Shown here: positions 18,430-40,000 of the stretch, piece after piece
Numbering within the stretch: the stretch's first letter is position 1
How the letters are laid out: each line of letters opens with the position of its first letter
Assembly: GCA_963811805.1 (NCBI GenBank)
Contig: CAWESU010000003.1
Location: forward strand, 324,435-364,434
Source of the DNA: an uncultured Acidobacteriota bacterium
GTDB lineage: Bacteria > Acidobacteriota > Terriglobia > Acidiferrales > UBA7541
Direction: 5' to 3'
Length of the DNA: 40,000 bases
The notes under the pieces: model-generated
The model's input: the letters and a program-made list of their open reading frames with translations, nothing else
The model's database searches: none
What the model was told of the DNA's origin: nothing
Position numbers and translations under genes: made by a program

Positions 18430-18570
18430 CCTTCGTTTAGCATGGGCCTATCGGCGCTCATGAGATAGATGGATCGTCCCAAGCTCTTCCTATTCGCGCT
18501 GCCTTGTGCGCGATGTCTTCGCTTTCGGTTTTTCGAGTTTCGCTTTTCGAATTTCGTTTTGCCTTTTCTC

Positions 18571-18640
18571 GTCACTAGCCACTCGCCACTGGCTTTGAGC
18601 CGGCTCGTCACTCGCCACTAGCCACTAGCCACTAGCCACT
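18571..18640. repeat. degenerate heptamer tandem repeat (GCCACTA and variants)
   Basis: GTCACTAGCCACTCGCCACTGG ... GTCACTCGCCACTAGCCACTAGCCACTAGCCACTG. There are four near-perfect GCCACTA units at 18614-18640. Confidence 0.75.
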
Positions 18641-21674: not shown

Positions 21675-23107
21675 AGAAGTTGTCCCGCCTTTAGTTGAAA
21701 CCTAAAAAAGGAAGCAGCGGCTCTCGACCCGAACTCGGATAGAGTTCGGGTTGCAAACTCTATTTTCAGAGGAGAGCCGCTGTGAGGAAAACCTATCAGG
21801 GAATGAAAGACAAGTGCAAGGAGAAGTTCGAAGTGCTTGGCAAGCGGGAGTTGCTGGAGGTGCCGCTGCCGATGGTCGAAGTGTGGGAGGAGCTGCAAGC
21901 CCAGGTGGAGCAGTTGACCGGGGCAGCGGGGCTGCGCATCATCGGCACGATTCTGGAAAACGAAGTGACCCGGCGCGTGGGACCGCCACACCGGCCGGAT
22001 CCGGTGTCGGGTGCCGTGCGTTGGGGGCGCCAGCCGGGTTACGTGGTGTTTGGCGGACAGAAAGTAGCCGTGGAACGTCCGCGGGTGCGCACACGAGAAG
22101 GTCAAGAAGTGGAGCTGGACAGTTACGCGCGGTTGCAGCACGACGGACGGCGGCAGCGCGCGGTGCGCGAAGGCATCGTCGCGGGACTGACCTCACGGAA
22201 CTATCGCCGCGCGGTGCAAAGCGTGGTGGATGGCTACGGGATCGAGAAGTCCAGCGTGAGCCGGGAGTTCGTAGCGGCCAGCGTGGCGCAGTTAAAAGAA
22301 CTCTGTGAGAAGAAACTCGACGGCGTGGACCTGGTGGCCATCCTGATCGACGGGATTCATCTCGGCAAACAAGTGCTGGTGGTGGCGCTGGGCATTGAAA
22401 TCAGCGGAGAAAAACACGTTCTGGGGCTGTGGCAAGGGGCGACAGAGAACACTACGGTAGTGAAGGAGTTGCTGGAGGACCTGGTGGTACGCGGCCTCGA
22501 TCCCGAGCGGCGTTACTTGTTCGTGATCGACGGAGCGAAAGCGTTGCGCGCGGGGATCGAGCGGGTGTTCGGCGAACGCGCCGAAGTGCAGCGCTGCCAG
22601 ATCCACAAGCGGCGGAACGTAAAAGAACATCTGCCGCAGAGCGCCCAGGGCGATACGGACCGGAGAATCCGCAACGCCTATGCGATGACCGAGTACGCGG
22701 CGGCCAAAGCGGAACTCGAGAAAATCTTCCGGCAACTGGAGCGCATCAACCCCAGCGCGGCACGGAGCCTCGAAGAAGGGCTGGAAGAAACCCTCACCGT
22801 GCACCGGCTCGGTGTGGGAACCCTGTTGCGGAGAACGCTGTCCTCAACCAATCCCATCGAGTCGTGCCTTTCGACCGTCGAGAAAGTAGCGCGCAACGTA
22901 AAACGCTGGCGTCAAGGAGAGCAAGCCTTGCGCTGGACGGCCACCGGGTTGTTGGAAGCGCAAAAGAAATTCCGGCGAGTGAAAGGCTACCGGGAACTGG
23001 AACTCTTGCATCGCCGGATGAACCCGTCGTTGACTCAACAGGAACAGGTCGCGTAACGTGCAGAAAGTCGAGAGCCGCTGCTTTCAACTAGAACTGGGAC
23101 AACTTCT
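21675..23107 (+). mobile_element. IS256-family insertion sequence (1433 bp)
   Basis: Terminal inverted repeats: AGAAGTTGTCCCGCCTTTAGTTGAAA on the left, and the reverse complement of the right end AGAAGTTGTCCCAGTTCTAGTTGAAA. A 15-nt subterminal match GCAGCGGCTCTCGAC is also present. Flanking direct repeat GAAAAAC at 21668-74 and 23108-14. Single transposase ORF. Confidence 0.85.
21782..23056 (+). CDS. IS256-family (Mutator-like) transposase
   Basis: 424 aa. ILIDGIHLG and FVIDGAKAL acidic blocks, plus VQRCQIHKRRNVKEHLP (the C-x2-H..RN signature of IS256 transposases). Alternative ATG at 21803. Confidence 0.85.
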   Translation: MRKTYQGMKDKCKEKFEVLGKRELLEVPLPMVEVWEELQAQVEQLTGAAGLRIIGTILENEVTRRVGPPHRPDPVSGAVRWGRQPGYVVFGGQKVAVERPRVRTREGQEVELDSYARLQHDGRRQRAVREGIVAGLTSRNYRRAVQSVVDGYGIEKSSVSREFVAASVAQLKELCEKKLDGVDLVAILIDGIHLGKQVLVVALGIEISGEKHVLGLWQGATENTTVVKELLEDLVVRGLDPERRYLFVIDGAKALRAGIERVFGERAEVQRCQIHKRRNVKEHLPQSAQGDTDRRIRNAYAMTEYAAAKAELEKIFRQLERINPSAARSLEEGLEETLTVHRLGVGTLLRRTLSSTNPIESCLSTVEKVARNVKRWRQGEQALRWTATGLLEAQKKFRRVKGYRELELLHRRMNPSLTQQEQVA

Positions 23108-26047: not shown

Positions 26048-26444
26048 GTCATCCTATTCAGGTTTGTTCACGCTACTATACTATAATACCGGGCGGTGTG
26101 TAGGGCTCCCCTCGCACTCTAGCCTGAAAATTATCCGTGTCTCACAAAACGTTGTGACGGGCGCGAAGCTACACCCACAGCGAGATCGAAGTTCAGGCTG
26201 CCGGGCGGTCTCTTCTCTTGCGAGAGTTCCTGCGCGAAACCACAAAAAAAGATCGAACGGCGAGCAGGCAGAGGGGTGGTCCCTTTTTCGCATGCATATA
26301 CGCATACTCCGCATACGTCTGACGGGATAGGAGACAGAAGCCCGCAAAGTTGCACCCCCTGTAAGGCGTTGCGTTTCTTGGAGGGATCGCGTTCAGTAGG
26401 ATTCAGGCTCTGAAAGCATTTCTGGGGGTGGAATAGAAACTAAC

Positions 26445-26612
26445 CTAGCGGCGCTTTCTGGCAAGTGTCTGACGGGCTGCGATCTTTGCCAAACCAAGCA
26501 CGATCCCTGAATTTGTCATCACTGCGTACCGCCAACGTTTCTCAGCCGCGCGCCTTGGCAAATCAAAATCCTCTTGGGTCATCTTCACATTTACCTGAAT
26601 CGTGCGTTTCAT
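26445..26612 (-). CDS. possible ribbon-helix-helix small protein (55 aa, below the ORF-track cutoff)
   Basis: My translation: MKRTIQVNVKMTQEDFDLPRRAAEKRWRYAVMTNSGIVLGLAKIAARQTLARKRR. A beta-strand followed by two helices is compatible with CopG/Arc folds. No partner gene and no clear RBS. Confidence 0.25.
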   Translation of the reverse strand: MKRTIQVNVKMTQEDFDLPRRAAEKRWRYAVMTNSGIVLGLAKIAARQTLARKRR

Positions 26613-26784
26613 GCCTTCTTGTATCTGCTAAACACAGAACGCCAGCAACGTTACTATTCGTACTGAAAATGCTTCCTGTACGTTCGGCCAGCTTACCGCT
26701 TAGGCATTCTGGTGCTCGACAGCGAGTTGACCAAAACGATCCGAGCTACACTGACGCAAGCATCCCACAAGGAGAGATAAACCG

Positions 26785-27402
26785 ATGAAACGGACGCTCG
26801 CAGTTTCAACTACGATCATTTTCATGCTCATGGTTACATCAGCCACTTTCGGACAAAGCACCACCGAGACGAAGAAGGAGCCAGTGAAACCTGTGGCTAA
26901 AACATCGGCTCTAGCAAGGACAGCGCCAAAGGAATCTCCAGATCGCGCTAAACCGGCCCAGTCATTTCACTCGTTGTTTTCCAGGAAACAAAAGGACGAG
27001 CCGGATCAACACGCGCGAGAAGCTCGCGGAGTAGAAGAAGTCCATCCGGCGGCTCGCCCACTTGAACCTCAGCACAGTTTTTACGAAGATCACTTGCAAG
27101 CAGCGCATGCGATTCGCGTTGAGGATCAACTGCATTTCGATGGGCGGCGCTTTGATGATGCCTATTTCGCAGCCAATTTCGGAATAAACCATTCACTCGT
27201 TGTGACGCCCGTCATTGTTCCTGGCGGAGGCACGTATATGTGGTTTGGCTCTTTTTGGTTCTCAGCACCCTCCATGCCAGTGGGATTTGTTTGGACCCGC
27301 CCGGTTTGTATTGAATATGACGCTGTCAACGGCTTTTATTACATGACTGACCTTTCAACCGATCCGCCGACCTTTGTGAAGGTTGAAGCCGTAGTGCAGT
27401 AG
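26785..27402 (+). CDS. hypothetical secreted protein
   Basis: GGAGAG RBS. Signal peptide MKRTLAVSTTIIFMLMVTSATFG. No recognisable domain. Confidence 0.6.
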   Translation: MKRTLAVSTTIIFMLMVTSATFGQSTTETKKEPVKPVAKTSALARTAPKESPDRAKPAQSFHSLFSRKQKDEPDQHAREARGVEEVHPAARPLEPQHSFYEDHLQAAHAIRVEDQLHFDGRRFDDAYFAANFGINHSLVVTPVIVPGGGTYMWFGSFWFSAPSMPVGFVWTRPVCIEYDAVNGFYYMTDLSTDPPTFVKVEAVVQ

Positions 27403-27457
27403 GAGATTCGAGCAGAGGTTCTCAAAATAATCTGCGGAAAACAGGAGAGAAAGAACC

Positions 27458-28030
27458 ATGAAGATAATTTTATCAGCTTTATTTCTTGGGCTGATTGCTA
27501 GCTTGGCGGTGGCGCAAGACCAACCACCGGCTCCCCAGTCCACAGTTTTTATGGGACACCAATTGGGCGAAACTGTTCAGCAATGGTTCAGCGCCAGCGA
27601 TGAGCCGAAAAGATGCGCGGAGTGGAAGAGGAATAAGGCTGACAACAAACTGTTTTGTAAAGTGGCAGACGACATCGCGCAAGGGAGATCGGGTATGCTC
27701 GATACCAGACAGCCGGGCGACAGCGTACTCGCAAGAGATCGCTGGTATTTTCAATATGGCAAACTCGCTGCACTAATCGGAACTTTTCTCCCCTACGACA
27801 AAACCCTCGCGGAACTTCGTGAAAAGTACGGCCCGGAAACGAAAAAGCAGGCAAAACTGGTCGTGCACGTGCTAAGCCCGACGTACCCTGTCTTTGGCGA
27901 AAAGTGGGCCATGCCCGACGGCACACTACTTTTCTTGGTAGAGGATACGCGTGCCGTCAATCATGCGAATCTCGTGATAAGCACGCAAGCGTATATCGAC
28001 CAACAGCAAGACGCAAACAATCCGTTTTGA
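27458..28030 (+). CDS. hypothetical secreted protein
   Basis: AGGAGAGA RBS. Signal peptide MKIILSALFLGLIASLAVAQ. No recognisable domain. Confidence 0.6.
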   Translation: MKIILSALFLGLIASLAVAQDQPPAPQSTVFMGHQLGETVQQWFSASDEPKRCAEWKRNKADNKLFCKVADDIAQGRSGMLDTRQPGDSVLARDRWYFQYGKLAALIGTFLPYDKTLAELREKYGPETKKQAKLVVHVLSPTYPVFGEKWAMPDGTLLFLVEDTRAVNHANLVISTQAYIDQQQDANNPF

Positions 28031-28116
28031 GAGGTGTGTGTACGATAAGGGTCATAAAAAGCTCTCGCACAAGAAGGTTTTTTTTGCTGGGCGATCCAAC
28101 TGGCACATCGCAACCC

Positions 28117-29022
28117 TTATTGAGGGAATAGATTTGGCGTTACACCGGAAGTCGAGCAAATTGCCTCAAGTTCTGGATAGTGCTCAATCAAGGTTGCGGG
28201 TGCCTTTACAGGACGTTTGGTAAGCAAATGGATAAGCTGAAGAGCGTTTACGATGGCTTTGCCCCGGTAATGATTGTTGGTGATTACGAACGTGGACTCG
28301 GAGTTTTCGGCGACGGTGTGGATGCGCTCCGCCCAAGGTTCAAGCTCTTTTCCGCTGTATAAATAGTTGTACCGATCCTCTGACGGCATGTTCGGATCGT
28401 CAGAAAACCAAGTATCGTACCGGCGTCCGTGAAGCCGGATGTAGCCCACTGGCGCTGTCGCGCGGTCTGACGGCCTGAGCGAGCGTCCAATCACCGGCTG
28501 GTCAACATTGCAAAAGCCGACGCCGCACTCCCCCAGCAGATCATAGAAGTCCTTCTCATTCCAGGATGCGTGACGAACCTCAACGACGAGGGGATATTCA
28601 GCGAAGCGAGCAAACAGTTTTTTCAAGTAACCAAGATTCTCCGGCGTGCGATGGAACGAGAAAGGGAATTGCGCAAGCACCGCGCCCAGTTTGTCGGCGT
28701 CCCGCAGCGGATCAAAACCGGCACGGACGGCCCGCTCATCTTCTATGTTCGCGTTCCGTTCGTGAGTGAATTTCTGCCAGAGTTTCGCTGTGAATAGGAA
28801 TCGTGGATTCTCCGCAACAAAGTCGATCCACTTCCGTGCCGTGTCCGGCTCGATTGGGGAGTAAAAAGAGGTATTGAGTTCGATGGCATCGAAGTACTGC
28901 GCCAAGTAAGCAGCTTCGTGAAAACCGGAAGGGCGGCGTTTGGGATAGACGATTCCCGCCCAGTCTTTGTACGACCATCCGGCGGGGCCGATGCGAACTG
29001 GCGCGGGTTTTGGAGATTCCAT
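28117..29022 (-). CDS. DUF72 (YecE-like) family protein
   Basis: IGPAGWSYKDWAGIVYP N-terminal signature, FDAIELNTSFY, and VEVRHASW, typical of DUF72. Confidence 0.8.
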   Translation of the reverse strand: MESPKPAPVRIGPAGWSYKDWAGIVYPKRRPSGFHEAAYLAQYFDAIELNTSFYSPIEPDTARKWIDFVAENPRFLFTAKLWQKFTHERNANIEDERAVRAGFDPLRDADKLGAVLAQFPFSFHRTPENLGYLKKLFARFAEYPLVVEVRHASWNEKDFYDLLGECGVGFCNVDQPVIGRSLRPSDRATAPVGYIRLHGRRYDTWFSDDPNMPSEDRYNYLYSGKELEPWAERIHTVAENSESTFVITNNHYRGKAIVNALQLIHLLTKRPVKAPATLIEHYPELEAICSTSGVTPNLFPQ

Positions 29023-29050
29023 TTACTTTCGCCTTTTATTCGTCTACAAT
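29022..29050 (+). promoter_or_regulatory. sigma70-like promoter candidate for the recA-like/PolB-1 operon
   Basis: TTTACT (29022-27), 17-nt spacer, TACAAT (29045-50), 33 nt upstream of ATG 29083. Confidence 0.3.
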
Positions 29051-29065
29051 ACTCCTGCTCTGCCC
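29048..29065. repeat. left arm of candidate terminal inverted repeat
   Basis: AATACTCCTGCTCTGCCC. It matches the reverse complement of 39307-39326 at 17 positions, with two 1-nt indels and one mismatch. Confidence 0.3.
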
Positions 29066-29082
29066 TTAAGAGCGCCAACATT

Positions 29083-29703
29083 ATGACTCTACCCCTCGCG
29101 TCAACCCGCACGGAACAGCATTCTTCTCTGAATCCGTGGGTTCTCCCACTTCGACAGTTGTCCGTTTTCTATGGCTCGCCGCAAGTGCCGCGTCTCTCGC
29201 ACTACTTCCTGCCGAGACTTTTGCTGAATGATGAGCGCGTTCTGTTTTTAGACGGAGCCAATCAGTTTGACCCTCTTTTGCTTGCTCGGTTTGCCCATAA
29301 GCGAGGGCGTGACAGTTCCTCTTTCAATCGGCTCGTGCGTGTTGCGCGGGCTTTCACATGCTTTCAGTTGACGGAGCTAATCACACGCACGCCAAATTTC
29401 TTGAACAGTTTTCCGGCGAAGGTTTTGGTGATTACGGCTATGCCCGATTTGTTTTTCGATGAAGACGTGCGGGAGCATGATGCGCGAGCATCGTTTGAAC
29501 ACGCGCTAGAAGGATTGCGGCAGATTGTACGCGATTCAGTTCCGCTTGCCGTTTTCTCAGATGCGACTTCCTTCCACACGGGGCGACTAGGGTTCTTCCA
29601 TCAACTCACCAAACAGGCCGACAGGCTCTTGAAAGTCGAAATACGAGCGGATGACAAACTCGCCTTCACTTGCGAGAAAGAGACGCCCCAATTACCAACC
29701 TAG
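29083..29703 (+). CDS. RecA/RadB-fold protein with degenerate P-loop (ImuA-like in architecture)
   Basis: LSVFYGSPQVPRLSHYF sits where RecA/RadB proteins have GxxGxGKT. Also RVLFLDGANQFDP, VRVARAFTCFQLTELI and a Walker-B-like KVLVITAMPDLFFDE. ATG 29083 is chosen because the longer track ORF runs antisense into DUF72. Confidence 0.55.
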   Translation: MTLPLASTRTEQHSSLNPWVLPLRQLSVFYGSPQVPRLSHYFLPRLLLNDERVLFLDGANQFDPLLLARFAHKRGRDSSSFNRLVRVARAFTCFQLTELITRTPNFLNSFPAKVLVITAMPDLFFDEDVREHDARASFEHALEGLRQIVRDSVPLAVFSDATSFHTGRLGFFHQLTKQADRLLKVEIRADDKLAFTCEKETPQLPT

Positions 29704-29724
29704 TCGTTTTGCCGGAGAGATGTT

Positions 29725-30078
29725 ATGGGCCGCACAGTTCCCACTTTTGTTCAACTCGTTCAGCAAACCATCCAACGATGGGCGAAATTCCGCCGCGCTC
29801 TTAGACGCGAAGATCAGCCTCACTTCGACAAACTATTCCTTTCGGTGAGAGGGTACACACAAGCGGCAACCTACCAATGCAGTGACAATCCGATGGAAGC
29901 CATTCTTCTTTCCGTGGCGCTCGATCAAGAGAAACGCATCGCGGCACTTGAAAAGCTCGTGAAGGGAAGCGAAGAAAACCATGCGACTGAACGGCTGGAT
30001 TCTCGATCTCTATCCCGGCCAACAAGGAATGACAATTTGGCTGATCGACGCGAATCAGGCTCACTACCGTTTAAGTGA
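29725..30078 (+). CDS. small hypothetical protein, 3' end overlaps PolB-1 by 98 nt
   Basis: GGAGAG RBS 5 nt upstream. MGRTVPTFVQLVQQTIQRWAKFRRALRREDQPHFDKLF... is helical, with no recognised family. Confidence 0.45.
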   Translation: MGRTVPTFVQLVQQTIQRWAKFRRALRREDQPHFDKLFLSVRGYTQAATYQCSDNPMEAILLSVALDQEKRIAALEKLVKGSEENHATERLDSRSLSRPTRNDNLADRRESGSLPFK

Positions 30079-32200
30079 CAGCTTTGCTCCGGCTTTCTAT
30101 GTTTCAGGAGCCGCCGAGAAACTCTCGCACTTGCAACGGTCGTTGGAGCAACAGCGCGCTCCCGTTATTTGCCAGTCCACGGAGCGAATTGACCTCTGGC
30201 AGAACAGGCTCCGGCAAGTTCTGAAAATCTCCGTCCAATCACCGGTTGAATTTGTCCGATGGGGGCGTTGGGTACATCGTTTCGATTCTCGCCTTCAGCT
30301 TTACAACAGCGACCTCATGGTTGCTTCGCTTTATTGTTGGCAGACAAATGTCTTTCCCCTTGCGCGCGTCGAAGTTGAAGCAGACGAAAACGGGAACGTA
30401 CAACGCATGGAACGGCGCGACGATGAATGGGCGCTGGATTACGAGCTTCCGCCGCTCAAGATTATGCAGATTCGGCTTGTGGGTTTTTCACGAATTGACC
30501 CGAACCACGGTCGCCGAGCGGCACTCGAAATTGAAAGCGAGGGCCGCTGCTTCGAGTTAGATGAAAATGACGAACCGCCCGCGCTCGGTTTTGCTCGTTT
30601 GTTGAAGCGCGAAGACCCGGACGTGATTTTATCCGAGTGGGGCGACGCGACAATCTTGCCGCTATTACGCGAGCGAGCCAGCCGCCTGAAACTTTCCTTG
30701 CAACTGAATCGCGATTCTTCCGTTCCCGTGCAACAAAGCAAGCCGCACAGCTTTATGAGTTATGGGCGGATTCTTTTCAAAAACAGCGCCACTACACTGT
30801 TTGGGCGTTTGCACGTGGACAAACAGAACTCTTTCATCTCCGAGAAATGCGACTTCGCCGGCCTTTGGGAATTGGCACGCATCACGAAGCTGCCCGTCCA
30901 ATATGCGGCGAGAACAACCACGGGAACGGGAATCTCCTATATGCAGATGGAGCTTGCCTATCACGATGGCGTGTTGATCCCGGAACAAAAGGCCGAGCCG
31001 GAAGACCCAAAGCAACCCGATGAAATACTGGCCGCAGATCGTGGCGGATTGGTTTTTGTGCCGAAGCTGGGTTTTAGGCCGAACGTCGCAGAGTTGGACT
31101 TTGTAAGTGAATATCCAAGCATCATGGCGCGATTCAATATCTCGCCAGAAACCGTGAATTGCTCTTGCTGCCCCGATGCCCCGCGCATTCCGGAACTCGG
31201 CTACCGTGTCTGCCATAAGCGACGCGGAATCACAAGTCGGATTGTCGAACGCCTCATTGCGAAACGCACGGAATGGAAGCGGCGGCTGCCAACCTCGCCA
31301 TTGGAACTTGTGCAACGCTACAAATTGCAGCGCGATTCACTCAAATGGCTTCTCGTTTGTTGCTTCGGCTATACGGGCTACAAAAATGCACGCTTCGGCA
31401 AGATTGAAGCGCATGAAGCCATCAATGCCGTGGCGCGCGAGACTCTACTTGTCGCAAAAGAAATCGCCGAGAGTCACGGTTTCGAGTTGATTCACGCACT
31501 AGTGGACTCACTCTACGTTTGGAAAGAACATGCCAGCCGCAAGGACTACGAACAACTCGCCCATGAGATCGAGGGCCGTACGGGACTTCCGTTAGCAATC
31601 GAAGCCGTCTATCGCTATGTGGTGTTTCTCCCATCTCGGCAATATGCGGATGTCCCCGTTCCGAATCGTTTCTTCGCTGTCGGTGAAGATGGTGAACTGA
31701 AAGTTAGAGGTCTCGAATGCCGTCGCCATGACACGCCGCCATTCATTGCACGAATGCAGCGTGAAGTGCTCTCGATTCTGGCGGAAGCCACTGACTACGA
31801 TAGCTATCTCAACAAGCTCGAAACAGCGCGAGAAGTTTGGCACAACTACGAAGAGAAACTGACGAACGGAGACGTGGACGTACAGGACTTGGTAGTGAGT
31901 AAACGAATCACACGAGAACCGCGTGAATATCAGAAGGCTAATCTTACGGCCATTGCCGCACAGCAGCTTTTCAGTTGCGGTGTCAAGTTACGCCCCGGAC
32001 AGGCGGTTGAGTACGTTATCACCAACGCAGACGCCGCCGTTCCCAATGATCGCGTTTGCGCCTTTCCGTTGTGGGGAGGGTGGCAAGGATACGACCGGCA
32101 CAAGTACAGAGCAATGCTGCAAGAGGCATTCGCGCCGTTCCTCGCCATTGCGCAGAAATATGATGGCTCGATAGCGATTCCGGCGTTGTACTTGGCCTAG
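29981..32200 (+). CDS. divergent family B DNA polymerase, exonuclease motifs lost (PolB-1)
   Basis: Archaeal/Pol II-like N-terminus (GWILDLYP...FAPAFYVSG). Motif A LDFVSEYPSIM. Motif B KWLLVCCFGYTGY. Motif C reduced to HALVDSLYV. The KxY region is NRFF. The ExoI site is LKIMQIRLVG with no D/E, and the ExoII site is WGDATILPLL. Confidence 0.8.
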   Translation: MRLNGWILDLYPGQQGMTIWLIDANQAHYRLSDSFAPAFYVSGAAEKLSHLQRSLEQQRAPVICQSTERIDLWQNRLRQVLKISVQSPVEFVRWGRWVHRFDSRLQLYNSDLMVASLYCWQTNVFPLARVEVEADENGNVQRMERRDDEWALDYELPPLKIMQIRLVGFSRIDPNHGRRAALEIESEGRCFELDENDEPPALGFARLLKREDPDVILSEWGDATILPLLRERASRLKLSLQLNRDSSVPVQQSKPHSFMSYGRILFKNSATTLFGRLHVDKQNSFISEKCDFAGLWELARITKLPVQYAARTTTGTGISYMQMELAYHDGVLIPEQKAEPEDPKQPDEILAADRGGLVFVPKLGFRPNVAELDFVSEYPSIMARFNISPETVNCSCCPDAPRIPELGYRVCHKRRGITSRIVERLIAKRTEWKRRLPTSPLELVQRYKLQRDSLKWLLVCCFGYTGYKNARFGKIEAHEAINAVARETLLVAKEIAESHGFELIHALVDSLYVWKEHASRKDYEQLAHEIEGRTGLPLAIEAVYRYVVFLPSRQYADVPVPNRFFAVGEDGELKVRGLECRRHDTPPFIARMQREVLSILAEATDYDSYLNKLETAREVWHNYEEKLTNGDVDVQDLVVSKRITREPREYQKANLTAIAAQQLFSCGVKLRPGQAVEYVITNADAAVPNDRVCAFPLWGGWQGYDRHKYRAMLQEAFAPFLAIAQKYDGSIAIPALYLA

Positions 32201-32262
32201 CGATGATCGCTCCCCACCGCTTTGCAAGAGAACGTCGCTGAGAGCATATATGAGTCAAATCG

Positions 32263-33828
32263 TCAGCACTGAATCTCTTGTGCGCTTCTCTTACAACCAG
32301 TGAATCCAACTAACTCCGCGAGCTTTCTCCAATGCCTCGGATGCGGGACGCGCTTTCCTGTGCGTATGTCCGTCGCATATGGCTTCGAGACTGCAAGAGT
32401 CAACGCGATGGCTGGAATCGTAAAAGCCGCTAGCTTTGGCCGAATCTCTTCGCGGTAGACTCTTTCAGTCAACCACTTGGGTAAGTCAGAGGACTTCCAC
32501 AAAGTTCTACCCGTCATTTGCCGACGCATTGTCTCAGAACGGCGCGCCTGAGCCTTCGCGTTGTGGGCCGTTGTTCTTCCGAGTTGGGCAACTTTCAGAA
32601 TTGCTGTCTTGGATTCGTTTAACGCACATGATTTACACAGAGTATTGCCACAAGTGATCGCCGTACCGCAGATTCGGCAGACAGACGGCGGATGCGGCAC
32701 CGGAACCGGGCGAAGACTCAAATCTTCTCCGGTGCGGCTTCGGCGCTGCTGTGTCAACCGCGTGGCCGGGCCAGCCGCTACGGCAGGTTTTCTCATGGTT
32801 GACCACAGCTTACGGCATACGCTCTCTGCTACGGGCGCGACGGCCCAAGCCCAAGTCTGCGCGGTTTCCGAAAGCCGCGCTGCAAATGAACCGACTAGCC
32901 GACAATTGCCATCCGGCTGTTCAAAAAACCATTCTCGGCGCAGTGGCTCACGATTGATCCAGTCGAACACGTAAGCGTCAACTCGCGGGCGAATCGGTTC
33001 CATCAGATCAGACGCGAGGCTGTCGCGCGTCCGGCTATCGAAATGCAATACGCCAAGACCGGGATCGAGGCCAAGCGCGGCAGCGGCTAACCGAGCTTCG
33101 GATTCAAGCAGCGCGTAAAGATAATTGAGCATTGCGTTCGGCGGATTCACAGCCAATCGGGGAGAACCTGTGAGCGGCGAAGCACGAAGCCCGAATTTGA
33201 GCCAATGATCCGGTACGCGACGAAGATCAGCCTTGGCGAACATGATCGGTACGTTGCGCCATGCACCCCAGTATGCTTTTGCTGCTTGGGACTCGAAAAA
33301 CCGCAAGTCATCAATCGAATTCGCGGATGGAAGCTTTTCGCGAGCACTGGCAATCTGCGCAGCCACACCCGTATCGTGAAACTTTTCGCGAATCAGCCGC
33401 TCTTGCGCAACGAGCTTTTGATCTAGCAATTCTTGCGAAATCTGCAAACCCACTTCGGAGCGATACGCCAGAGCTTGGGCGCGTCGCAATCGAGCATCGG
33501 ACGGACGAACTGGGCCAGTTGTGGCGAGCACGGAACCCTTGCGATCCAGCATCACAAAGCTAGCGTCTTGATCGGCCAGCCAGCGAAGCGCGGAGAGAGT
33601 GACGGTGCCATCGTTGCCGATCACCACAAGCCGCCTGATGCCATGCCCGATGCGGGCAAACCGCGCAGTAGTTCGGCGCGAGCCGATGCCGTCATGGATG
33701 ATGAGATGTCCTCGATCCACGCGGACATCAATGCCATAGCCGAATAGCGTCACGACTCCATGTCTCGGTTCAATCGGGATGAAATTGCAGTGCTCGGAAA
33801 GTTGCGGTACCGTTTGCGTAGCTGCCAT
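32263..33828 (-). CDS. cas1: Cas1 homolog (casposase-like) with C-terminal zinc ribbon and basic/HTH-like extension
   Basis: N-domain LFGYGIDVRVDRGHLIIHDG...LVVIGNDGTVTLSALRWL. Catalytic blocks FFESQAAKAYWGAW (E), NAMLNYLYALLESE, and LGVLHFDSRTRDSLASDLMEPIRPRVD (H, D). Extension carries CRICGTAITCGNTLCKSC. Confidence 0.85.
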   Translation of the reverse strand: MAATQTVPQLSEHCNFIPIEPRHGVVTLFGYGIDVRVDRGHLIIHDGIGSRRTTARFARIGHGIRRLVVIGNDGTVTLSALRWLADQDASFVMLDRKGSVLATTGPVRPSDARLRRAQALAYRSEVGLQISQELLDQKLVAQERLIREKFHDTGVAAQIASAREKLPSANSIDDLRFFESQAAKAYWGAWRNVPIMFAKADLRRVPDHWLKFGLRASPLTGSPRLAVNPPNAMLNYLYALLESEARLAAAALGLDPGLGVLHFDSRTRDSLASDLMEPIRPRVDAYVFDWINREPLRREWFFEQPDGNCRLVGSFAARLSETAQTWAWAVAPVAESVCRKLWSTMRKPAVAAGPATRLTQQRRSRTGEDLSLRPVPVPHPPSVCRICGTAITCGNTLCKSCALNESKTAILKVAQLGRTTAHNAKAQARRSETMRRQMTGRTLWKSSDLPKWLTERVYREEIRPKLAAFTIPAIALTLAVSKPYATDIRTGKRVPHPRHWRKLAELVGFTGCKRSAQEIQC

Positions 33829-33834
33829 TGGAGC

Positions 33835-34977
33835 TTAACCCTCCGTGGTAGTTAGGGGCGCGTTCGGTGTTCTAGCACCGGCGCGTCCCGCTTTTGCCGT
33901 AACCCTTATTTTACCCTTCCGTTTAGGAACACGCGCCTTTTTTCTCGGTAGTGACAGCTTCTCTCGTGAATCGCGAACGTTATCAAGCGAGGTTTTAGGG
34001 CGAGAAACATTCCTTAGATAAGCAGATGTGATCGCATAAGGAATGAATGCCTGCTGATGCTTGGATTTTAATACCTCTTCGACTGCAAGCCTGAAGTCGC
34101 GCCACTGCTGACAAATCGAGTCACGCGGATAATTTTCCTTCTTTGGTAAGTTCAGAAGCGCCGCCCGGAACCTCTCCGCTAAAGATTTGCCTCTCCTCGC
34201 GCCGACACGCAGGAACAGACGCTCAACGAGTCGGAAAACAACATACGGATGTTGCGCGAAGGAATCCGCTGGCATCTTTGAACATCGAGTGTCCGATTGC
34301 CGCCATCGCATGTAAGGCAAGCCTGCCAGAGCGTTTGCAAGGTTGAGCGGCGTGAGTGCGCGTTTTCGCTTTCCCTCACTTCGCAAAAAACTCAGTAGCT
34401 CAGAACAATACAAATACACTTCTCCGTTGCGGAGCTGATCTTCGAGCAAGACGCACTCCCGCTGTTTCGCATCAAAAGTCTTTTCGTGGTGCCTCAATTT
34501 CCTACGACACCGGCGACGTTCGTTCCGAAAAGTAGTTTTGTCCTTTTCGTCCGCTTGTTTGACCGCGTTCGCTGCCTCAGCGCAAGCCTGCTGAAGCCCT
34601 GGATACTTTCGCTGCATGTCCTGAAGCTCATACCTGAGTCTGGTGCTTGTTAGGGCGTATTTTCGGAGTTCTCGTACCGTTGCGTGTTGCGGCTCCCCTC
34701 GCAAGAAAGCTCTAGCGTGATCGCAGTGCGGTTTGTCCACAACTCGCTTAAAGACCCTTTGCACATCCGTGATCGTGCTGCTTCTGCGCTTGCGAATCCG
34801 CAATAAGTGCCAGCCAATTTCGGGCCAGCATTGCTCGAAGAATACTTGCCACTGATTCCGGCTGCCCAAAAGAGAGTTATCGGGGATTGTTGGGCGACCC
34901 CCCTTATTAGGTGTTTCCGGTTCCTCCGAAACTGTGTCCATAGGGTCGAAACTAAAATCCCCGCCAGAAAACTCCAT
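33835..34977 (-). CDS. hypothetical basic protein, co-operonic with cas1
   Basis: 380 aa. AGAGG RBS. Stop lies 6 nt before the cas1 ATG. KGGRPTIPD near the N-terminus and a K/R-rich tail (RKKARVPKRKGKIRV). No recognised family. Confidence 0.6.
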   Translation of the reverse strand: MEFSGGDFSFDPMDTVSEEPETPNKGGRPTIPDNSLLGSRNQWQVFFEQCWPEIGWHLLRIRKRRSSTITDVQRVFKRVVDKPHCDHARAFLRGEPQHATVRELRKYALTSTRLRYELQDMQRKYPGLQQACAEAANAVKQADEKDKTTFRNERRRCRRKLRHHEKTFDAKQRECVLLEDQLRNGEVYLYCSELLSFLRSEGKRKRALTPLNLANALAGLPYMRWRQSDTRCSKMPADSFAQHPYVVFRLVERLFLRVGARRGKSLAERFRAALLNLPKKENYPRDSICQQWRDFRLAVEEVLKSKHQQAFIPYAITSAYLRNVSRPKTSLDNVRDSREKLSLPRKKARVPKRKGKIRVTAKAGRAGARTPNAPLTTTEG

Positions 34978-35137
34978 CGCAATTTGCCTCTATCGCCAGA
35001 AAACCGACTTTTGATGTGTGCACATTTCCCGAAAACCCCCATTTTTGCTGCTCTTGCCGGGCCGTGCAGGTTCGGAATACCCGGTGTAAAACGGATACGT
35101 CTGCACCGATTCTCTCACGATGAAAGTGAGGAAAACC

Positions 35138-35710
35138 ATGAGGCGGTCACGGAAATACAACAGGGCAAGAAAAAGCAAGAAGCCCAGCCTAAGTCGGAGT
35201 CGGAGAGTTCGCGTAGCTGCGCCACGAACGGCTAAGCAATTCTTCGCGAAGCCGAATGAGTTTCAAGAGACGTGGACTCGTGTAGCACACGTCGTTTCCA
35301 AAATGCGAACGGAACGAACCTCTCTTCGTGAAGCTTCGCGCGAATTCGGCCTCGATCCTCGCATTGTGACCCGGCTCGGCAAGTCGGCTTTGCGTAAGCG
35401 GAAGAATGGGCAGTACGTCGCAAAGCGCAGCGACAAGCTCTTGCGCATTCTCGCGATTCCTACAGCCGATGGCGTGCGCGAGATCGCGATTCGGGACTCG
35501 CGCCAAGCTACCATTCTCGGAAAGTATTGGGCCGCAGTCCAAAAGTATCTGCAAACTGGCGATGCCTCAGGCTTAAAGAAATTCCATCGCAAACGCATTA
35601 CCGATGCGAGCCGCAGGCGCGTGCCGCTAATCACAGACCAAGCTGAGTTAGACCGGCTCGGCTCTGCCGGTGTGCTGTCCTTTGAATCGCTTTATGCAAA
35701 GGTCGCCTGA
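35138..35710 (+). CDS. hypothetical HTH-containing basic protein
   Basis: ATG 35138 follows a GAGGA RBS; the track start 35120 is also possible. K/R-rich N-terminus. HTH-like TSLREASREFGLDPRIVTRLGK. Confidence 0.55.
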   Translation: MRRSRKYNRARKSKKPSLSRSRRVRVAAPRTAKQFFAKPNEFQETWTRVAHVVSKMRTERTSLREASREFGLDPRIVTRLGKSALRKRKNGQYVAKRSDKLLRILAIPTADGVREIAIRDSRQATILGKYWAAVQKYLQTGDASGLKKFHRKRITDASRRRVPLITDQAELDRLGSAGVLSFESLYAKVA

Positions 35711-36202
35711 TTGAGAAGAAAGGTACAAATTCGCGATCCGATTGCGGCACATCAGCGCAAAGCCGTTGCCGTGCGCCGCGTTGGATTTGATGCGCAATGC
35801 GCGTGCGGCGAATCGCGGCCTGAAGCACTTTTGAGCGGAAGTAATCCGGCCATCTGCGCTGCTTGTGATCGGAAGCGACGCGGCAAGGCAACGCTGGATC
35901 GCCATCACATCGCGGGCAAGTCGAACAGCGCGGTCACAATTCCAATTCCTGTTAACGATCATCGCGCCCGACTCAGCGCCGATCAACACGATTGGCCGAA
36001 GCAAACGCTGGAAAATCCGAACGGCAGTCCGCTACTGGCTGCCGCTGCATCACTCCGGGGATATTCGGATACAACCATCTATCTCCTCGAAACGTTACTG
36101 CATCCCGAAATGCTCGAAGCACTGGATGCGCTCTTGATACAAAAGCTCGGCCCGGAATGGTGGATTGGTACGCCGATGGAAAAATATGCGCAGAGACGAT
36201 AA
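35711..36202 (+). CDS. HNH-like zinc-finger nuclease domain protein
   Basis: CACGE...CAACDRKRRGKATLDRHHIAGKSNSAVTIPIPVNDHRARL fits a Cys4 knuckle plus the HH...N...H layout of the HNH/His-Me finger. TTG start abuts the upstream stop. 3' end overlaps the PolB-2 start. Confidence 0.5.
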   Translation: MRRKVQIRDPIAAHQRKAVAVRRVGFDAQCACGESRPEALLSGSNPAICAACDRKRRGKATLDRHHIAGKSNSAVTIPIPVNDHRARLSADQHDWPKQTLENPNGSPLLAAAASLRGYSDTTIYLLETLLHPEMLEALDALLIQKLGPEWWIGTPMEKYAQRR

Positions 36203-39200
36203 CCACAAACCGAGCAAGGCTTTACTTCCGCTCGCTGTCCGCATCTACCCGGAACCCGAAAAGCCGAAGCAAGAACAGCGAGCTGATCGCCCGCTGCGGC
36301 ACTGGCGTTGTCCAGATGCGATGCTGGTTTTCGACACGGAAACGAGAACCGACGCAACCCAGCGGCTTACTTTTGGCAGTTACCGATTTCTTGTTGCAGG
36401 GCAATGTCGCGAAGAGGGCTTGTTCTATGCTGATGATTTACCGGCGAGAGACCTAGCGATCCTCAAGGATTACATTGCGAGACATAAAGCCGATGTCGCA
36501 GACAGCAAGGCGGAGCTTCGCTTGCTCACGCTTTCCGAATTCTTGGATAAGTTCTATCGGGCTGCGTACAAATCTCGCTGCTTGCTTGTGGGATTTAATC
36601 TTCCGTTCGACTTATCGCGCATTGCCGGGGACGTTGCACCGGCTCGCGGTCGTTTCGCAGGCGGCTTTTCATTGGGACTCTGGTTTTATACTGATAAGTC
36701 GGGACGGAAACGACGGCATCAAAATCGGCCCCGAATCGGAGTCAAACAGATTGACGGCAAGCGGGCACTGAAGGGATTCACTGGGCAGAATAATCCTGAC
36801 AAATCAGACCTGATCCCCGAAGGTTCGGAAACCGGCGGTGCACCTGAAGATGGCTATAAGTTTCGAGGCCACTTTCTCGACTTGCGCACGCTCGCGTTTG
36901 CGCTGACAGATCAGAGCTACTCCCTCGAATCCGCGTGCGAAGCATTCGGTGTCGAACATGGAAAACAACGTGCCTCTCGGCACGGCGAGGTCACAGAAGA
37001 ATATATTGATTACAACCGGCGCGACGTTCTGGCCACGTCAGAATTAGCTGAAAAGCTTTCCCCAGAATACGAAAGGCACAGACTGTCACTTCAGATAACG
37101 AAAGCATATTCACCCGCTTCCATCGGAAAGGCATATCTGCGAGAAATGGGCATTGAGCCGATTCTCAAAAGGCAGCCGGACTTTCCCAAGAAATATCTTG
37201 GCTTTGCGCAATCGGCATTTTTCGGCGGGAGAACCAGCGCACATATCCGCAAAGTTCCCGTCCCAGTCGTTTACACCGATTTTCTTTCGATGTATCCGAC
37301 AGTGAACAGCTTAATGCGGCTGTGGCGGTTTGTGATCGCTCGCGAAATTAAGGTTGTTGAACATTGCGAAAGAGAAACCACCCGTTTTCTGGAAGAAATA
37401 AAAAATAATCCCCCTTGCTTGTTCGATCCTCATACGTGGGAACGGTTAACCGCCTTTGTGAAAGTCATTCCCGATGGCGATATTCTGCCAACCCGGAGCA
37501 AATACAATGCGGCCAGCAATGATTGGCAAGTGGCCGTGAATTATCTTTACGCGGGAGAGCACAAAGCAAATAAAGCTCTATGGTTTTCTCTTCCCGATGT
37601 AATTGCTTCCGTGCTCCTAAGCGGCAAGATTCCGACAGTCGTAAATGCATTTCGCATTGAAGCGCATGGCGTTCTTGATGGATTAGAGCCAACAAAGCTG
37701 TACGGAGCAATTGAAGTTGATCCACGAAAGCAGGATTTCTTCAAAAGAGTAATTGAAGAAAGAAAGCGGCTTGGTTTTCAATCGAACGTCTCCCCCAATG
37801 AGAAAAAGAAACTCGATAAGGCATTGAAAGTTCTTGCGAATGCTACCAGCTACGGAATCTATGCGGAAATGAACCGGCAAGAGTCAGATCACAAAAACAT
37901 TAGGGTGAAATGTCACGGGATAGATGCAGAGCCTTTCACCTGCTCCGTTGCTCACCCTGATGATCCCGGCGAGTATTGTTTTCCGCCGATGGCTTCCCTG
38001 ATAACCGGAGCAGCCCGGCTGATGCTCGCATTATTGGAGTACTCCGTCACAAAGCTGGGTGGCACATACGCTATGGAAGATACCGATTCAATGGCGATTG
38101 TAGCGACTGAGAACGGCGGAATGATTCTATGCCCCGGCGGTTCTCTCAAAACAAACAATGACCGCAAAGTGGTAAGAGCACTATCTTGGAAGCACGTTCA
38201 GCAAATCGCGGATCGTTTCGCTGCTTTGAATCCGTATGCAAATGATGCAGTACCGGGATCAGTCCTCAAACTCGAAGAGGATAATTTTGATCCGGTAACA
38301 CACAAACAGCGCCAGCTTCACTGCCTCGCAATTTCTGCAAAGCGATATGCACTTTTTCTGTGCAATTCAAAGGGCGAGCCTGTTCTTCTTCGAGACGGAA
38401 TCAATAACCGTGCCGACAGGTGGTCAGAACACGGTCTAGGCCATCTTTTGAATCCAATGGACTTGGAAAATGAGGATCGCAACTGGATCGCGCAAACTTG
38501 GCTGAACATCATTCGCAAAGCTCTTGGATTATCGGCCAAACGGTTAAATTTTGAGAATTGTCCCGCAGTAGGCCGAATCACCGTGAGCAGTCCTGCCGTC
38601 ATGCTTCCGTTAAACAAAATAAATCAACGAAAGAATTATGCAAATCAAATTAAACCATTCAATTTTCTTTTATCGTGTCACGTGAAGCAGCTTGGCCATC
38701 CCATCGGCAGTGATCCTGAGCATTTTCATTTAATCGCGCCGTATGAATCCGATTCAAAACGATGGACAGCAATCGAATGGATAGATCAATACACCGGAAA
38801 AAGGTACAGAATCACAACAACTGAACCACACGGAAACCGGCACACGGCGCGCGTGAAAACGTATGGAGATGTTCTAATCGAATATGAATTTCACGCCGAA
38901 ACAAAGAATGCAGATAAAGAGGGGAATCCATCTGGAAAACAAACTATCGGCCTTTTGCAGCGGCGGTATGTTCAAATAGACCAAATCAAATACATCGGAA
39001 AAGAATCCAATAGCATAGAAGATGTCGAATCAGGATTGGCGCATTCCGAAGCCGATGTTTACACGCACTATCCCGATCCCCGGCGCGATGAGTGGGAAAT
39101 AAAGATTAAGCCCGCTTTGAGAAAAGCCGCGCTGTCCGTTCTGGAGAAAGAAACGGGCCTTTCCCGCCGAACTCTCATTTATGCGCGGACGGGTAAGCGC

Positions 39201-39263
39201 AAGCCACACCAAAAACACCGGAAATTGCTGGTTTCGGCTCTCCGAAAACTGAACCTTATCTGA
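36186..39263 (+). CDS. family B DNA polymerase with intact exonuclease and polymerase motifs, protein-primed-like architecture (PolB-2)
   Basis: ExoI LVFDTET, ExoII VGFNLPFDL, ExoIII YIDYNRRDV, pre-A FFGGR, motif A YTDFLSMYPT, motif B KVLANATSYG, motif C AMEDTDSMA, KxY ISAKRYAL. A C-terminal extension of about 290 aa ends in HTH-like ETGLSRRTLIYARTGKRK. Start is ATG 36186 or TTG 36165. Confidence 0.85.
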   Translation: MRRDDNHKPSKALLPLAVRIYPEPEKPKQEQRADRPLRHWRCPDAMLVFDTETRTDATQRLTFGSYRFLVAGQCREEGLFYADDLPARDLAILKDYIARHKADVADSKAELRLLTLSEFLDKFYRAAYKSRCLLVGFNLPFDLSRIAGDVAPARGRFAGGFSLGLWFYTDKSGRKRRHQNRPRIGVKQIDGKRALKGFTGQNNPDKSDLIPEGSETGGAPEDGYKFRGHFLDLRTLAFALTDQSYSLESACEAFGVEHGKQRASRHGEVTEEYIDYNRRDVLATSELAEKLSPEYERHRLSLQITKAYSPASIGKAYLREMGIEPILKRQPDFPKKYLGFAQSAFFGGRTSAHIRKVPVPVVYTDFLSMYPTVNSLMRLWRFVIAREIKVVEHCERETTRFLEEIKNNPPCLFDPHTWERLTAFVKVIPDGDILPTRSKYNAASNDWQVAVNYLYAGEHKANKALWFSLPDVIASVLLSGKIPTVVNAFRIEAHGVLDGLEPTKLYGAIEVDPRKQDFFKRVIEERKRLGFQSNVSPNEKKKLDKALKVLANATSYGIYAEMNRQESDHKNIRVKCHGIDAEPFTCSVAHPDDPGEYCFPPMASLITGAARLMLALLEYSVTKLGGTYAMEDTDSMAIVATENGGMILCPGGSLKTNNDRKVVRALSWKHVQQIADRFAALNPYANDAVPGSVLKLEEDNFDPVTHKQRQLHCLAISAKRYALFLCNSKGEPVLLRDGINNRADRWSEHGLGHLLNPMDLENEDRNWIAQTWLNIIRKALGLSAKRLNFENCPAVGRITVSSPAVMLPLNKINQRKNYANQIKPFNFLLSCHVKQLGHPIGSDPEHFHLIAPYESDSKRWTAIEWIDQYTGKRYRITTTEPHGNRHTARVKTYGDVLIEYEFHAETKNADKEGNPSGKQTIGLLQRRYVQIDQIKYIGKESNSIEDVESGLAHSEADVYTHYPDPRRDEWEIKIKPALRKAALSVLEKETGLSRRTLIYARTGKRKPHQKHRKLLVSALRKLNLI

Positions 39264-39277
39264 ACTGACTCCCCCTA

Positions 39278-39511
39278 TTATGTAGCGTATTTACAATTTC
39301 CATTCCGGGCCACAGCAGGAAGTATTCCGGTTGTGCGCCGTCCCGGACACCCCGCGAATCGGCATGGCACAAGTTCCTGCTTCTGCAACTGGCGAAGATA
39401 GCTAGACATCGAACGCGGAAAACGGTAGCGCACCGCATCCCGATATGGAACAAGAATCGCTAGTCTCTTCGCTTGATTAACATTTGTCGCAGCCGAATAA
39501 ACCGTTCCCAA
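39278..39511 (-). CDS. possible AlpA/excisionase-like HTH protein (weak)
   Basis: YRFPRSMSSYLRQLQKQELVPCRFAG loosely resembles the AlpA/MerR-type HTH (..sRStiYrl...g.fP.p.k.G). TTG start, no RBS seen, and it overlaps the candidate right inverted repeat. Confidence 0.2.
   Translation of the reverse strand: MGTVYSAATNVNQAKRLAILVPYRDAVRYRFPRSMSSYLRQLQKQELVPCRFAGCPGRRTTGILPAVARNGNCKYAT
39307..39326. repeat. right arm of candidate terminal inverted repeat
   Basis: GGGCCACAGCAGGAAGTATT, whose reverse complement is AATACTTCCTGCTGTGGCCC. It lies 43 nt after the PolB-2 stop. Confidence 0.3.
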
Positions 39512-39631
39512 GCGACACCTGTACGGGAGTCCAGCTTACCCTTCAGGCATAAATCCTACTGAAAATGCCGCCTCAACGCCAAGCACCCTCACAATTGTGC
39601 ATATCGCTGAAACCCAAAGGAGAAGATCCAA

Positions 39632-40000
39632 ATGAAGGCAATAGCACTGGCAACGACAATTATCATTTTCGTAATTGCTCCCTCTGCGTTCGCAGATCAT
39701 AGCAAGACAGTTCCCATGACTTGCGAAGCGGCCATCCATGAAGCAGAAGCCGTGGTCGTCGCGCAAAAACACGGTTACAAGGAACCCGGCCCACAAGACA
39801 TGGTTCTAAAAATCACTAGCTCCAATGTCGGCAAAACCGTGGGAGCGGCGGTGATCTTTCCGCCAGCCTTACTTTGGTCGCACCCGAAATTCGGCGCACT
39901 GACGTTCAGCGCATCAACAGATGGAAAATCGTGCATCGTCAAATCCACTGGTCAACCAGCGGATCAGGCGCTCAAGGATTGGGACAAAGACAGTAACTAG
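39632..40000 (+). CDS. hypothetical small secreted protein
   Basis: AAGGAGAAG RBS. Signal peptide MKAIALATTIIIFVIAPSAFA. Stop TAG at 39998-40000. Confidence 0.6.
   Translation: MKAIALATTIIIFVIAPSAFADHSKTVPMTCEAAIHEAEAVVVAQKHGYKEPGPQDMVLKITSSNVGKTVGAAVIFPPALLWSHPKFGALTFSASTDGKSCIVKSTGQPADQALKDWDKDSN

Follow-up and report, generated by a model that had tools for sequence, protein, structure and literature searches.

A probable PolB2 mutasome operon carried as accessory cargo by a casposon in an uncultured Acidobacteriota bacterium

The PolB2 operon, first described by Makarova et al. in 2014 (PMC4104785), joins the genes for a B-family DNA polymerase once thought to be inactivated (PolB2), a small helical protein (PPB2, arCOG07300) and iRadA, a RadA homologue that lacks both the ATPase residues and the N-terminal domain (PMC4104785; PMC11791011). 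The operon reached bacteria from archaea, and its only bacterial gene order is iRadA-PPB2-PolB2; most PolB2 members lack the first Asp of the DxD motif, PPB2, a three-helix protein of ~90-120 aa, carries a conserved N-terminal MGRT arm, and in PolB2 a D(K/R) motif ends the loop that contacts iRadA, the mode of binding being that of Rad51 oligomers (PMC11791011; PMC4104785). This D(K/R) motif precedes GG(L/F)(V/I), genes for DUF72, lexA and SRAP are enriched near polB2, and a beta-clamp-binding motif in iRadA or PolB2 is found in only a fraction of members (PMC11791011). Heteropentamers of the composition PolB2:iRadA:3xPPB2 have been modelled for 40 other operons (Timinskas et al. 2025, PMC11791011), and the resulting mutasome has been likened to Pol V (PMC11791011). 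PolB2 is needed for targeted mutagenesis (PMC11791011). The PolB2 enzyme of Sulfolobus, Dpo2 of S. islandicus and S. solfataricus, has IID as its motif C and is a robust polymerase that has no exonuclease activity and efficiently extends mismatched or lesion-paired termini (PMC8764526). Here we describe a three-gene operon in a 40,000-nucleotide stretch of contig CAWESU010000003.1 from an uncultured Acidobacteriota bacterium (the window, meaning the whole stretch that was analysed). The operon itself is already known as a type, having been described in 2013-2014 and modelled in 2025. With high confidence we read the window trio as a bacterial PolB2 mutasome operon that, together with a neighbouring DUF72 gene, rides as accessory cargo on a casposon of about 14 kb, the mobile element class whose defining features are given in PMC4046053 and PMC9939771.

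An earlier reading of the letters of the window, made without database searches (the sequence-only reading), had proposed an operon of a RecA-like protein, a small protein and a B-family polymerase, here called PolB-1, on the forward strand, and the three open reading frames (ORFs) lie where it had placed them (Table 1). In the ORF list iRadA and PPB2 are separated by 21 nt and PPB2 overlaps PolB-1 by 98 nt; GGAGAG stands 6 nt 5' of the PPB2 ATG. A divergent intergenic region of 60 nt separates the operon from the DUF72 gene and holds one weak sigma-70-like site, one of three such sites found when 1.7 were expected by chance. Homologues are numerous for all three proteins (more than 3077 for PolB-1, 2066 for iRadA and 1143 for PPB2), and the best 120 of the more than 3077 PolB-1 matches are 73-84% identical to it. 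Against the closest non-identical relative the ratio of nonsynonymous to synonymous substitution rates (dN/dS) was 0.10 for PolB-1 and 0.13 for PPB2 outside the overlap, and by these estimates both genes are under purifying selection.

The motifs of PolB-1 were checked by HMMER alignment to Pyrococcus and Thermococcus B-family polymerases, by MAFFT alignment with 17 homologues plus Pfu polymerase, and by hhalign comparison of the family with Pfu. Alignments with the deposited Deep Vent, Pab and Tgo sequences give the same registers as Pfu for ExoII and for motifs A, B and C. PolB-1 matched Pfam DNA_pol_B (PF00136) with E=3.6e-27 and, over its full length, the NCBIfam 'type B DNA polymerase' models NF004416 and NF004418 with E=7.6e-114 and 2.1e-103, below their cut-offs, these two models scoring far ahead of those for PolB1, PolB3, archaeal Pol I and bacterial Pol II. 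As had been proposed from the letters, the exonuclease site is dead: I225 occupies the position of the ExoII catalytic Asp, and the ExoIII region falls within a deletion. For ExoI, which had been placed at LKIMQIRLVG (residues 159-168), the loss of DxE stands but the exact register is uncertain, since hhalign prefers to set Pfu AFDIET on 142-RMERRD-147, with the Pfu catalytic D141 opposite E144 and Pfu E143 opposite R146 (relatives read AIECRD here); DxE is intact in neither register. The three comparisons give one result for ExoII, ExoIII and the polymerase motifs, and the latter agree with the earlier calls throughout. Motif A (LDFVSEYPS) keeps D373; motif B (KWLLVCCFGY) keeps K455 and has lost N and S, with V459, C460 and F462 in place of N, S and Y; in motif C, DTD is replaced by L507-V-D509, so that only the second Asp is kept; and the KxY position, which follows a nine-residue insertion, is N562-R-F564. 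The sequence-only reading had itself proposed a careful alignment as a check, and that alignment recovered no intact exonuclease or DTD residues.

Among 18 sequences (the window protein and its 17 homologues), D373, D509 and K455 are invariant, mean column identity is 79%, and long stretches show no substitution at all. The dipeptide 353-DR-354, which precedes GG, is also invariant in the PolB-1 family and lies opposite 253-DK-254 of S. islandicus Dpo2. PolB-1 is 34% identical to that enzyme (E=2e-40), and the two have in common a motif B variant (KWILVASFGYLGY in Dpo2 vs KWLLVCCFGYTGY in PolB-1) and a motif C variant (HSIIDSL vs HALVDSL). Over the 399 residues shown, it is 70% identical to MBZ5699580.1, a Terriglobia PolB2 whose entry in the published supplement gives the operon type as '1a (iRadA-PPB2-PolB2)', the DxD as 'LVD' and an upstream DUF72 (PMC11791011). 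With its PolB2-type motif set (KW[LI]LVxxFGYxGY, LVD, DRGG), PolB-1 is by all sequence indications a member of the PolB2 group.

The partner proteins fit the same assignment. By sequence, iRadA matches Rad51/RadA only weakly (Pfam Rad51, E=0.008; RadA chains in the PDB, E of about 0.1). An AlphaFold model was built with 32 homologues (pLDDT 79, pTM 0.78), and every one of its top 50 Foldseek matches in the PDB is a Rad51, RadA or DMC1 chain, with E values from 6e-11 to 3e-9 and TM scores of 0.62-0.71. The RecA-like protein has not turned out to be an unrelated fold, and its lack of a Walker A motif, also claimed from the letters, was found again: GSPQVPR (family consensus GCPEMPR) occupies the P-loop position after the first strand, with no GK[ST], a loss common to the 2066 homologues, and the RadA Walker B Asp lies opposite the Thr of VLVITA. 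In the model, the predicted fold is of the archaeo-eukaryotic Rad51/RadA type and not that of bacterial RecA or ImuA. All 32 PPB2 homologues compared carry Pfam PF26485/DUF8156 and an invariant MGRT; the AF2 model of PPB2 has helices at residues 8-25, 28-51 and 56-89, with the N-terminal arm free and the tail disordered, and hhalign matched PPB2 to its S. islandicus counterpart with a probability of 82% (E=1e-5). A conserved C-terminal 'LPF' in PPB2 was considered as a clamp motif and set aside: its codons (window 30040-30078) overlap those for the conserved N-terminal HYRL of PolB2 in another frame, so that conservation of 'LPF' is uninformative. As a separate observation, PPB2 has matches to PHROG families that lack a known function (phrog_30126 over its full length, E=2.6e-14) and iRadA weakly matches phrog_16666 (E=1.4e-4), which hints that such modules may also occur in viral or proviral genomes.

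Compared with the described PolB2 mutasome, the window trio has all three components in the sole bacterial gene order, the MGRT arm, the D(K/R)GG loop, a polymerase that has lost the first DxD Asp and the exonuclease site, an iRadA lacking the N-terminal domain and the ATPase residues, a DUF72 neighbour, and 70% identity to a catalogued Terriglobia member. It differs in having no adjacent lexA among the ORFs scanned and, as far as the sequence ends of iRadA and PolB2 show, no evident clamp-binding motif, and in lying within a casposon, a context unmentioned in those papers.

From position 26323 onward the window is a casposon. This call follows from the presence of a Cas1-solo protein, a self-encoded B-family polymerase, and terminal inverted repeats (TIRs) with a target-site duplication (TSD), and from finding the same element in different sites. 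Cas1 matched Pfam Cas_Cas1 (E=1.6e-42) and TIGR00287 and, weakly, HTH_31 at residues 470-515; it contains the Cys-rich segment CRIC...CGNTLCKSC. An identical Cas1 protein is encoded on 15 contigs, which come from several metagenome-assembled genomes (MAGs). By blastn other contigs share at least 99.9% identity with the window from 26320-26324 to the window end, and the left flanks all differ; the element thus stands in six genomic contexts, the window included, and the identity breaks off sharply at the tip of the TIR. Both ends lie on one contig, JBAUAB010000047.1 (locus L009, 138-14119), where the element measures 13,982 bp, equivalent to window 26323-40304; its 37-nt TIRs (CGGGATAGGAGACAGAAGCCCGCAAAGTTGCACCCCC and the inverted copy) match at 34 of 37 positions, and a perfect 12-bp TSD, CCGCCAAGTTGA, flanks it on both sides. 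Another locus (L008, ~8420-8460) has the element at the same target 5' of hrcA-grpE-dnaJ as L009 (~14100-14140), in the opposite orientation, a pattern that suggests independent, sequence-preferring insertions. Other flanks end in ...CCCCAAGTTGA, ...ACGTCTGA and ...CCTGCTG. At L011 (100-160) a second, diverged TIR, CTGCCTCCTATCCCG, stands head-to-head with the left TIR of the element with only CCGCCAAGTTGA between them, an arrangement that resembles two related casposons inserted in tandem at a common target. GC content is 0.49-0.54 within the element and 0.57-0.63 upstream, and the fall at the left boundary, from about 0.59 to about 0.52, is consistent with a foreign origin of the element. 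An inverted-repeat search of 26-40 kb gave only chance-level pairs, as the right TIR lies about 300 bp past the window end.

The casposon has a second B-family polymerase of its own, PolB-2, whose called gene starts at ATG 36186. The earlier claim that this polymerase is intact holds: DxE, D632-T-D634 and K719-R-Y721 are present, DTD and KRY being invariant, and the C-terminus is HTH-like (HTH, helix-turn-helix). Its family counts 5785 representatives after clustering at 50% with E<=1e-3, and 1677 with E<=1e-30. As a single sequence it matched nothing in the PDB and as a profile only marginally; PLSDB plasmids and GenBank phages gave no match to it, and IMG/VR gave no PolB-2 or PolB2 relatives with the patterns used. 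PolB-2 homologues lie beside Cas1 in related elements (below), and by this association PolB-2 is the predicted polymerase of the casposon itself. Its identity as a pipolin piPolB was considered and rejected, as it has DTD and KRY and not TTD and KTRG; no integrase, usual in pipolins, was found in the element. In piPolB, motif C reads TTD, KTRG replaces KxY, and a tyrosine integrase usually accompanies the gene (PMC5695915).

Table 1. Features of the casposon and its PolB2 operon in the window (position 1 is the first letter of the window)
Feature	Position	Strand	Description
Left TIR, CGGGATAGGAGACAGAAGCCCGCAAAGTTGCACCCCC	26323..26359		identity to five other contigs begins here, all flanks differ
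Casposon body	26323..40000		13,982 bp in L009; last ~304 bp beyond window end
55-aa ORF near left TIR	26445..26612	-	homologue in L018 at 72% identity
Five casposon ORFs (380, 196, 205, 190 and 122 aa)	33835-34977, 35120-35710, 26785-27402, 27458-28030, 39632-40000		no convincing Pfam match
DUF72 gene	28117..29022	-	Pfam PF01904, E=4e-55; divergent from operon
Sigma-70-like promoter match, TTTACT-17-TACAAT	29022..29050	+	weak evidence
iRadA	29083..29703	+	206 aa; predicted ATPase-dead Rad51/RadA core without N-terminal domain
PPB2	29725..30078	+	117 aa; small three-helix protein, N-terminal MGRT arm, DUF8156/PF26485 family
PolB-1 (PolB2 group)	29981..32200	+	739 aa; exonuclease site lost, motif C LVD, D353-R354-GG, D373/D509/K455 kept
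Cas1-solo (casposase)	32263..33828	-	521 aa; C-terminal Cys-rich zinc-binding segment and HTH; convergent with PolB-1
Cys-rich HNH-like ORF	35711..36202	+	163 aa; H-H...N...H pattern read by eye; kept beside PolB-2
PolB-2	36186..39263	+	1,025 aa divergent B-family polymerase; intact Exo and Pol motifs, C-terminal HTH

Related Cas1 loci were sought in one genome per species, and three were found in other Acidobacteriota MAGs. At L017 (3624-11542), Cas1 is 80%, PolB-2 70%, the 163-aa Cys/His-rich protein 75% and the 196-aa ORF 90% identical to those of the window; no PolB2 trio was found there, the far end of that element being cut by the contig end. The element at L018 (3255-19319) spans about 16 kb, with Cas1 59% identical and a PolB-2 homologue 28% identical; its TIRs of about 75 nt also begin with CGGGA and are flanked by a perfect 12-bp TSD, GCTCGCGTTTGA. 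Its variable region 3' of Cas1 holds different genes, including an ORF of 1,655 aa, and no PolB2 trio. The 196-aa ORF stays beside PolB-2 in both loci. Because these related casposons do without the PolB2 operon, the DUF72-iRadA-PPB2-PolB2 block is predicted to be accessory cargo of the window casposon.

The same gene order, adjacent and co-oriented, recurs in four relatives (L001, L002, L004 and L024). In the first three, with PolB2 about 75% identical, iRadA and PolB2 are adjacent with PPB2 between them (by gene call in L002 and L004, and by tblastn in all three), and neither Cas1 nor PolB-2 was found within 8 kb of the trio. L024 is the closest non-identical relative, its PolB2 being 84% identical; it keeps DUF72-iRadA-PPB2-PolB2 as a block and has neither Cas1 nor PolB-2 beside the trio. 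An excisionase-like HTH_17 gene and a tyrosine-integrase fragment (L024 5510-6350) adjoin this block, which would place it in another mobile-element context. At L002 (6351-6881) and L001 (1814-4191), a gene for a Peptidase_M78 (ImmA/IrrE-like) protein lies directly 5' of iRadA, and genes for an ATP-dependent DNA ligase and a WGR-domain protein lie a few kb off, possible damage-response neighbours.

These comparisons bear on whether the trio serves the life cycle of the casposon, for example by filling gaps at the duplicated target or synthesising across hairpin or damaged termini, and not the benefit of the host. The trio does lie inside the TIRs, adjoining cas1 and convergent with it, and an exonuclease-less extender could plausibly finish the repair of a staggered cut. 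However, related casposons with the same core lack the trio, the variable region 3' of Cas1 at L018 holds other genes instead, and the DUF72-iRadA-PPB2-PolB2 block also exists outside casposons; we consider this account unlikely. That an exonuclease-less PolB2 complex nevertheless helps the element, for example in gap repair at its duplicated target, is a speculative addition to the cargo reading.

Quite improbable, in our judgement, is a second account, put forward by the sequence-only reading, in which PolB-1 is a dead scaffold comparable to ImuB that, with the RecA-like protein, recruits or regulates PolB-2 encoded 4 kb away. The first DTD Asp, the motif B N/S and KxY are indeed lost, and PolB-1 and PolB-2 share one mobile element in at least six contexts. 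In B-family polymerases the primary metal ligands are the Asp of motif A and the second Asp of motif C, as mutagenesis of RB69, phi29 and Pol alpha enzymes has established, and these two residues, like K455, are invariant in the PolB-1 family. Dpo2, moreover, is a robust polymerase with IID as its motif C (PMC8764526). As for service to PolB-2, four trios occur without PolB-2 or Cas1 (L001, L002, L004 and L024), and the casposons at L017 and L018 have PolB-2 and no trio, so that this part of the proposal is unsupported. From the invariance of D373 and D509, the tight conservation of the family, the dN/dS of 0.10 and the activity of Dpo2 with IID, we read PolB-1 as the probable catalytic subunit of a translesion complex and not as an ImuB-like adaptor, activity of the bacterial protein being inferred by analogy.

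The analogy with the ImuA-ImuB-DnaE2 module, drawn from the letters, was apt as regards a mutasome and is unsupported as regards a dead B-family adaptor. Both are three-gene damage-tolerance cassettes with a RecA-like protein. In ImuA-ImuB-DnaE2, however, the dead Y-family ImuB is the adaptor and the C-family DnaE2 the catalyst, whereas here the B-family protein is likely the catalyst and the recombinase homologue appears to be of the Rad51/RadA type and not the bacterial RecA type; the ORF list and Pfam gave no Y- or C-family polymerase gene in the window operon. Closer in kind is Sulfolobus Dpo2, which belongs to the same polymerase group and shares the motif B variant and a hydrophobic first residue in motif C (IID vs LVD). 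It differs in being archaeal, in the order PPB2-PolB2-iRadA, in a more decayed exonuclease domain and in its regulation by the archaeal damage response, and its activity has been demonstrated (PMC8764526), whereas PolB-1 is known from its sequence. E. coli Pol V (UmuD'2C-RecA), with rumAB and mucAB, is likewise a translesion polymerase of several subunits, one of them of recombinase type, and rumAB and mucAB are likewise mutagenic polymerases carried as cargo of mobile elements, namely plasmids and integrative and conjugative elements (ICEs). Pol V, in contrast, combines a Y-family catalyst with active host RecA, where the window operon has a B-family polymerase and a dedicated dead paralogue; the vehicle of rumAB and mucAB is a plasmid or ICE, here a casposon.

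Very improbable is a role for the trio as an anti-phage defence module. The idea draws on its place beside Cas1 in a mobile island and on the PHROG families that match PPB2 and iRadA. Yet PADLOC matched neither iRadA nor PPB2, and matched PolB-1 only with a model for B-family polymerases containing an intein or homing endonuclease; the window has no CRISPR array; and the archaeal orthologue has a demonstrated role in DNA damage. Hardly credible, finally, is the notion that PolB-1 is a functionless, decaying relic of an enzyme: several of its canonical motifs have degenerated and the exonuclease domain has lost a portion by deletion, but the family is large (more than 3077 matches, the best 120 of them at 73-84% identity), its columns are 79% identical on average with long invariant stretches, dN/dS is 0.10, and both partner genes are kept alongside.

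Several points weigh against the assignment of the trio to a functional PolB2 mutasome on a casposon. Activity of PolB-1 would be an extrapolation from Sulfolobus. PolB-1 lacks the [KR]FPLF tail seen at the C-terminus of most relatives and ends ...IPALYLA (window 32100-32200), and no clamp-binding motif is evident, iRadA ending in ...PQLPT, as judged from the sequence ends without a profile search. Comparison of the window iRadA family with S. islandicus iRadA by hhalign was not significant (E=0.09), as might be expected of a protein reported to diverge rapidly. The monomer model of PPB2 is only moderate (pLDDT 68), and a structure search of the PDB with it gave no match. Among the element ORFs scanned lexA was not found, and no SOS box was identified. 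On the side of the element, the right end of the window casposon (right TIR and TSD copy, equivalent to 40304) lies beyond the window, and an empty site was not found in JGI metagenomes (a 26-mer gave no matches and a 20-mer four unrelated ones).

If the PolB2 mutasome assignment is right, the archaeal system and the published models suggest how the proteins would act. PolB2, iRadA and a trimer of PPB2 would assemble, with the MGRT arm of PPB2 wedged between PolB2 and iRadA, and the PolB2 loop ending at D353-R354 would bind iRadA as Rad51 subunits bind one another. After DNA damage the complex would serve as a proofreading-free translesion polymerase, extending primer ends that are mismatched or paired with a lesion. 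D373 of motif A and D509 of motif C would be the catalytic residues, the lost first Asp of DxD being presumably dispensable in the PolB2 group. Cas1 would mobilise the casposon and PolB-2 would presumably replicate it.

The architecture of the window element, as predicted from its genes, resembles that of the family 3 (bacterial) casposon AceAut-C1 (Krupovic et al. 2014, PMC4046053). The two share a Cas1-solo with a C-terminal zinc-binding segment and HTH, an HNH-like gene, a B-family polymerase, TIRs with a TSD, a site preference and tandem insertions. The window element differs in its 12-bp TSD, its Acidobacteriota host, the second, PolB2-type polymerase operon carried as cargo, and a very divergent PolB-2 with no PF00136 or PDB match and a borderline match to DNA_pol_B_2. 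Assignment of the 163-aa Cys-rich protein as a putative HNH-like nuclease draws on its sequence pattern, no profile having matched it. Of the remaining ORFs, those of 380, 196, 205 and 190 aa gave no PADLOC match, and NCBIfam and PHROGs were blank for the 380- and 196-aa ORFs except for one weak match (E=0.02, well below cut-off). Searches for RNA and repeat features gave no tRNA, no Rfam family and no CRISPR-like or other relevant tandem array; a short tandem repeat of 7/14 nt lies at 18.6 kb (18568-18640). Outside the element, a 987-aa predicted surface protein with TIG/IPT and beta-propeller matches (23084-26047) lies about 275 bp from the left end of the casposon.

Taken by itself, the operon is one more Acidobacteriota member of a catalogued family, and the label 'inactivated PolB' is an old inference since overturned by experiments. 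Its context is another matter. The PolB2 paper makes no mention of casposons and uses 'mobile' only for Pol V homologues (PMC11791011). In the literature searched we found no paper joining casposons with PolB2, iRadA or a mutasome, and within those limits the cargo context appears undescribed. We think it likely that the PolB2 mutasome and DUF72 travel as cargo on Acidobacteriota casposons of a lineage that has been active recently and appears to be undescribed, marked by a 12-bp TSD, a 37-nt TIR, a Cas1 with zinc-binding domain and HTH, and a highly divergent B-family polymerase of about 1,000 aa with a C-terminal HTH. Error-prone polymerases on plasmids and ICEs, such as mucAB and rumAB, raise the mutability of their hosts. 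A B-family counterpart on a casposon extends this theme to another class of mobile element, and indicates that casposons of bacteria can have moved in recent times and can bring adaptive cargo with them. If the reading is true, this would be the first B-family translesion mutasome on a self-synthesizing transposon, and PolB2 operons would have a concrete means of spreading horizontally between lineages.

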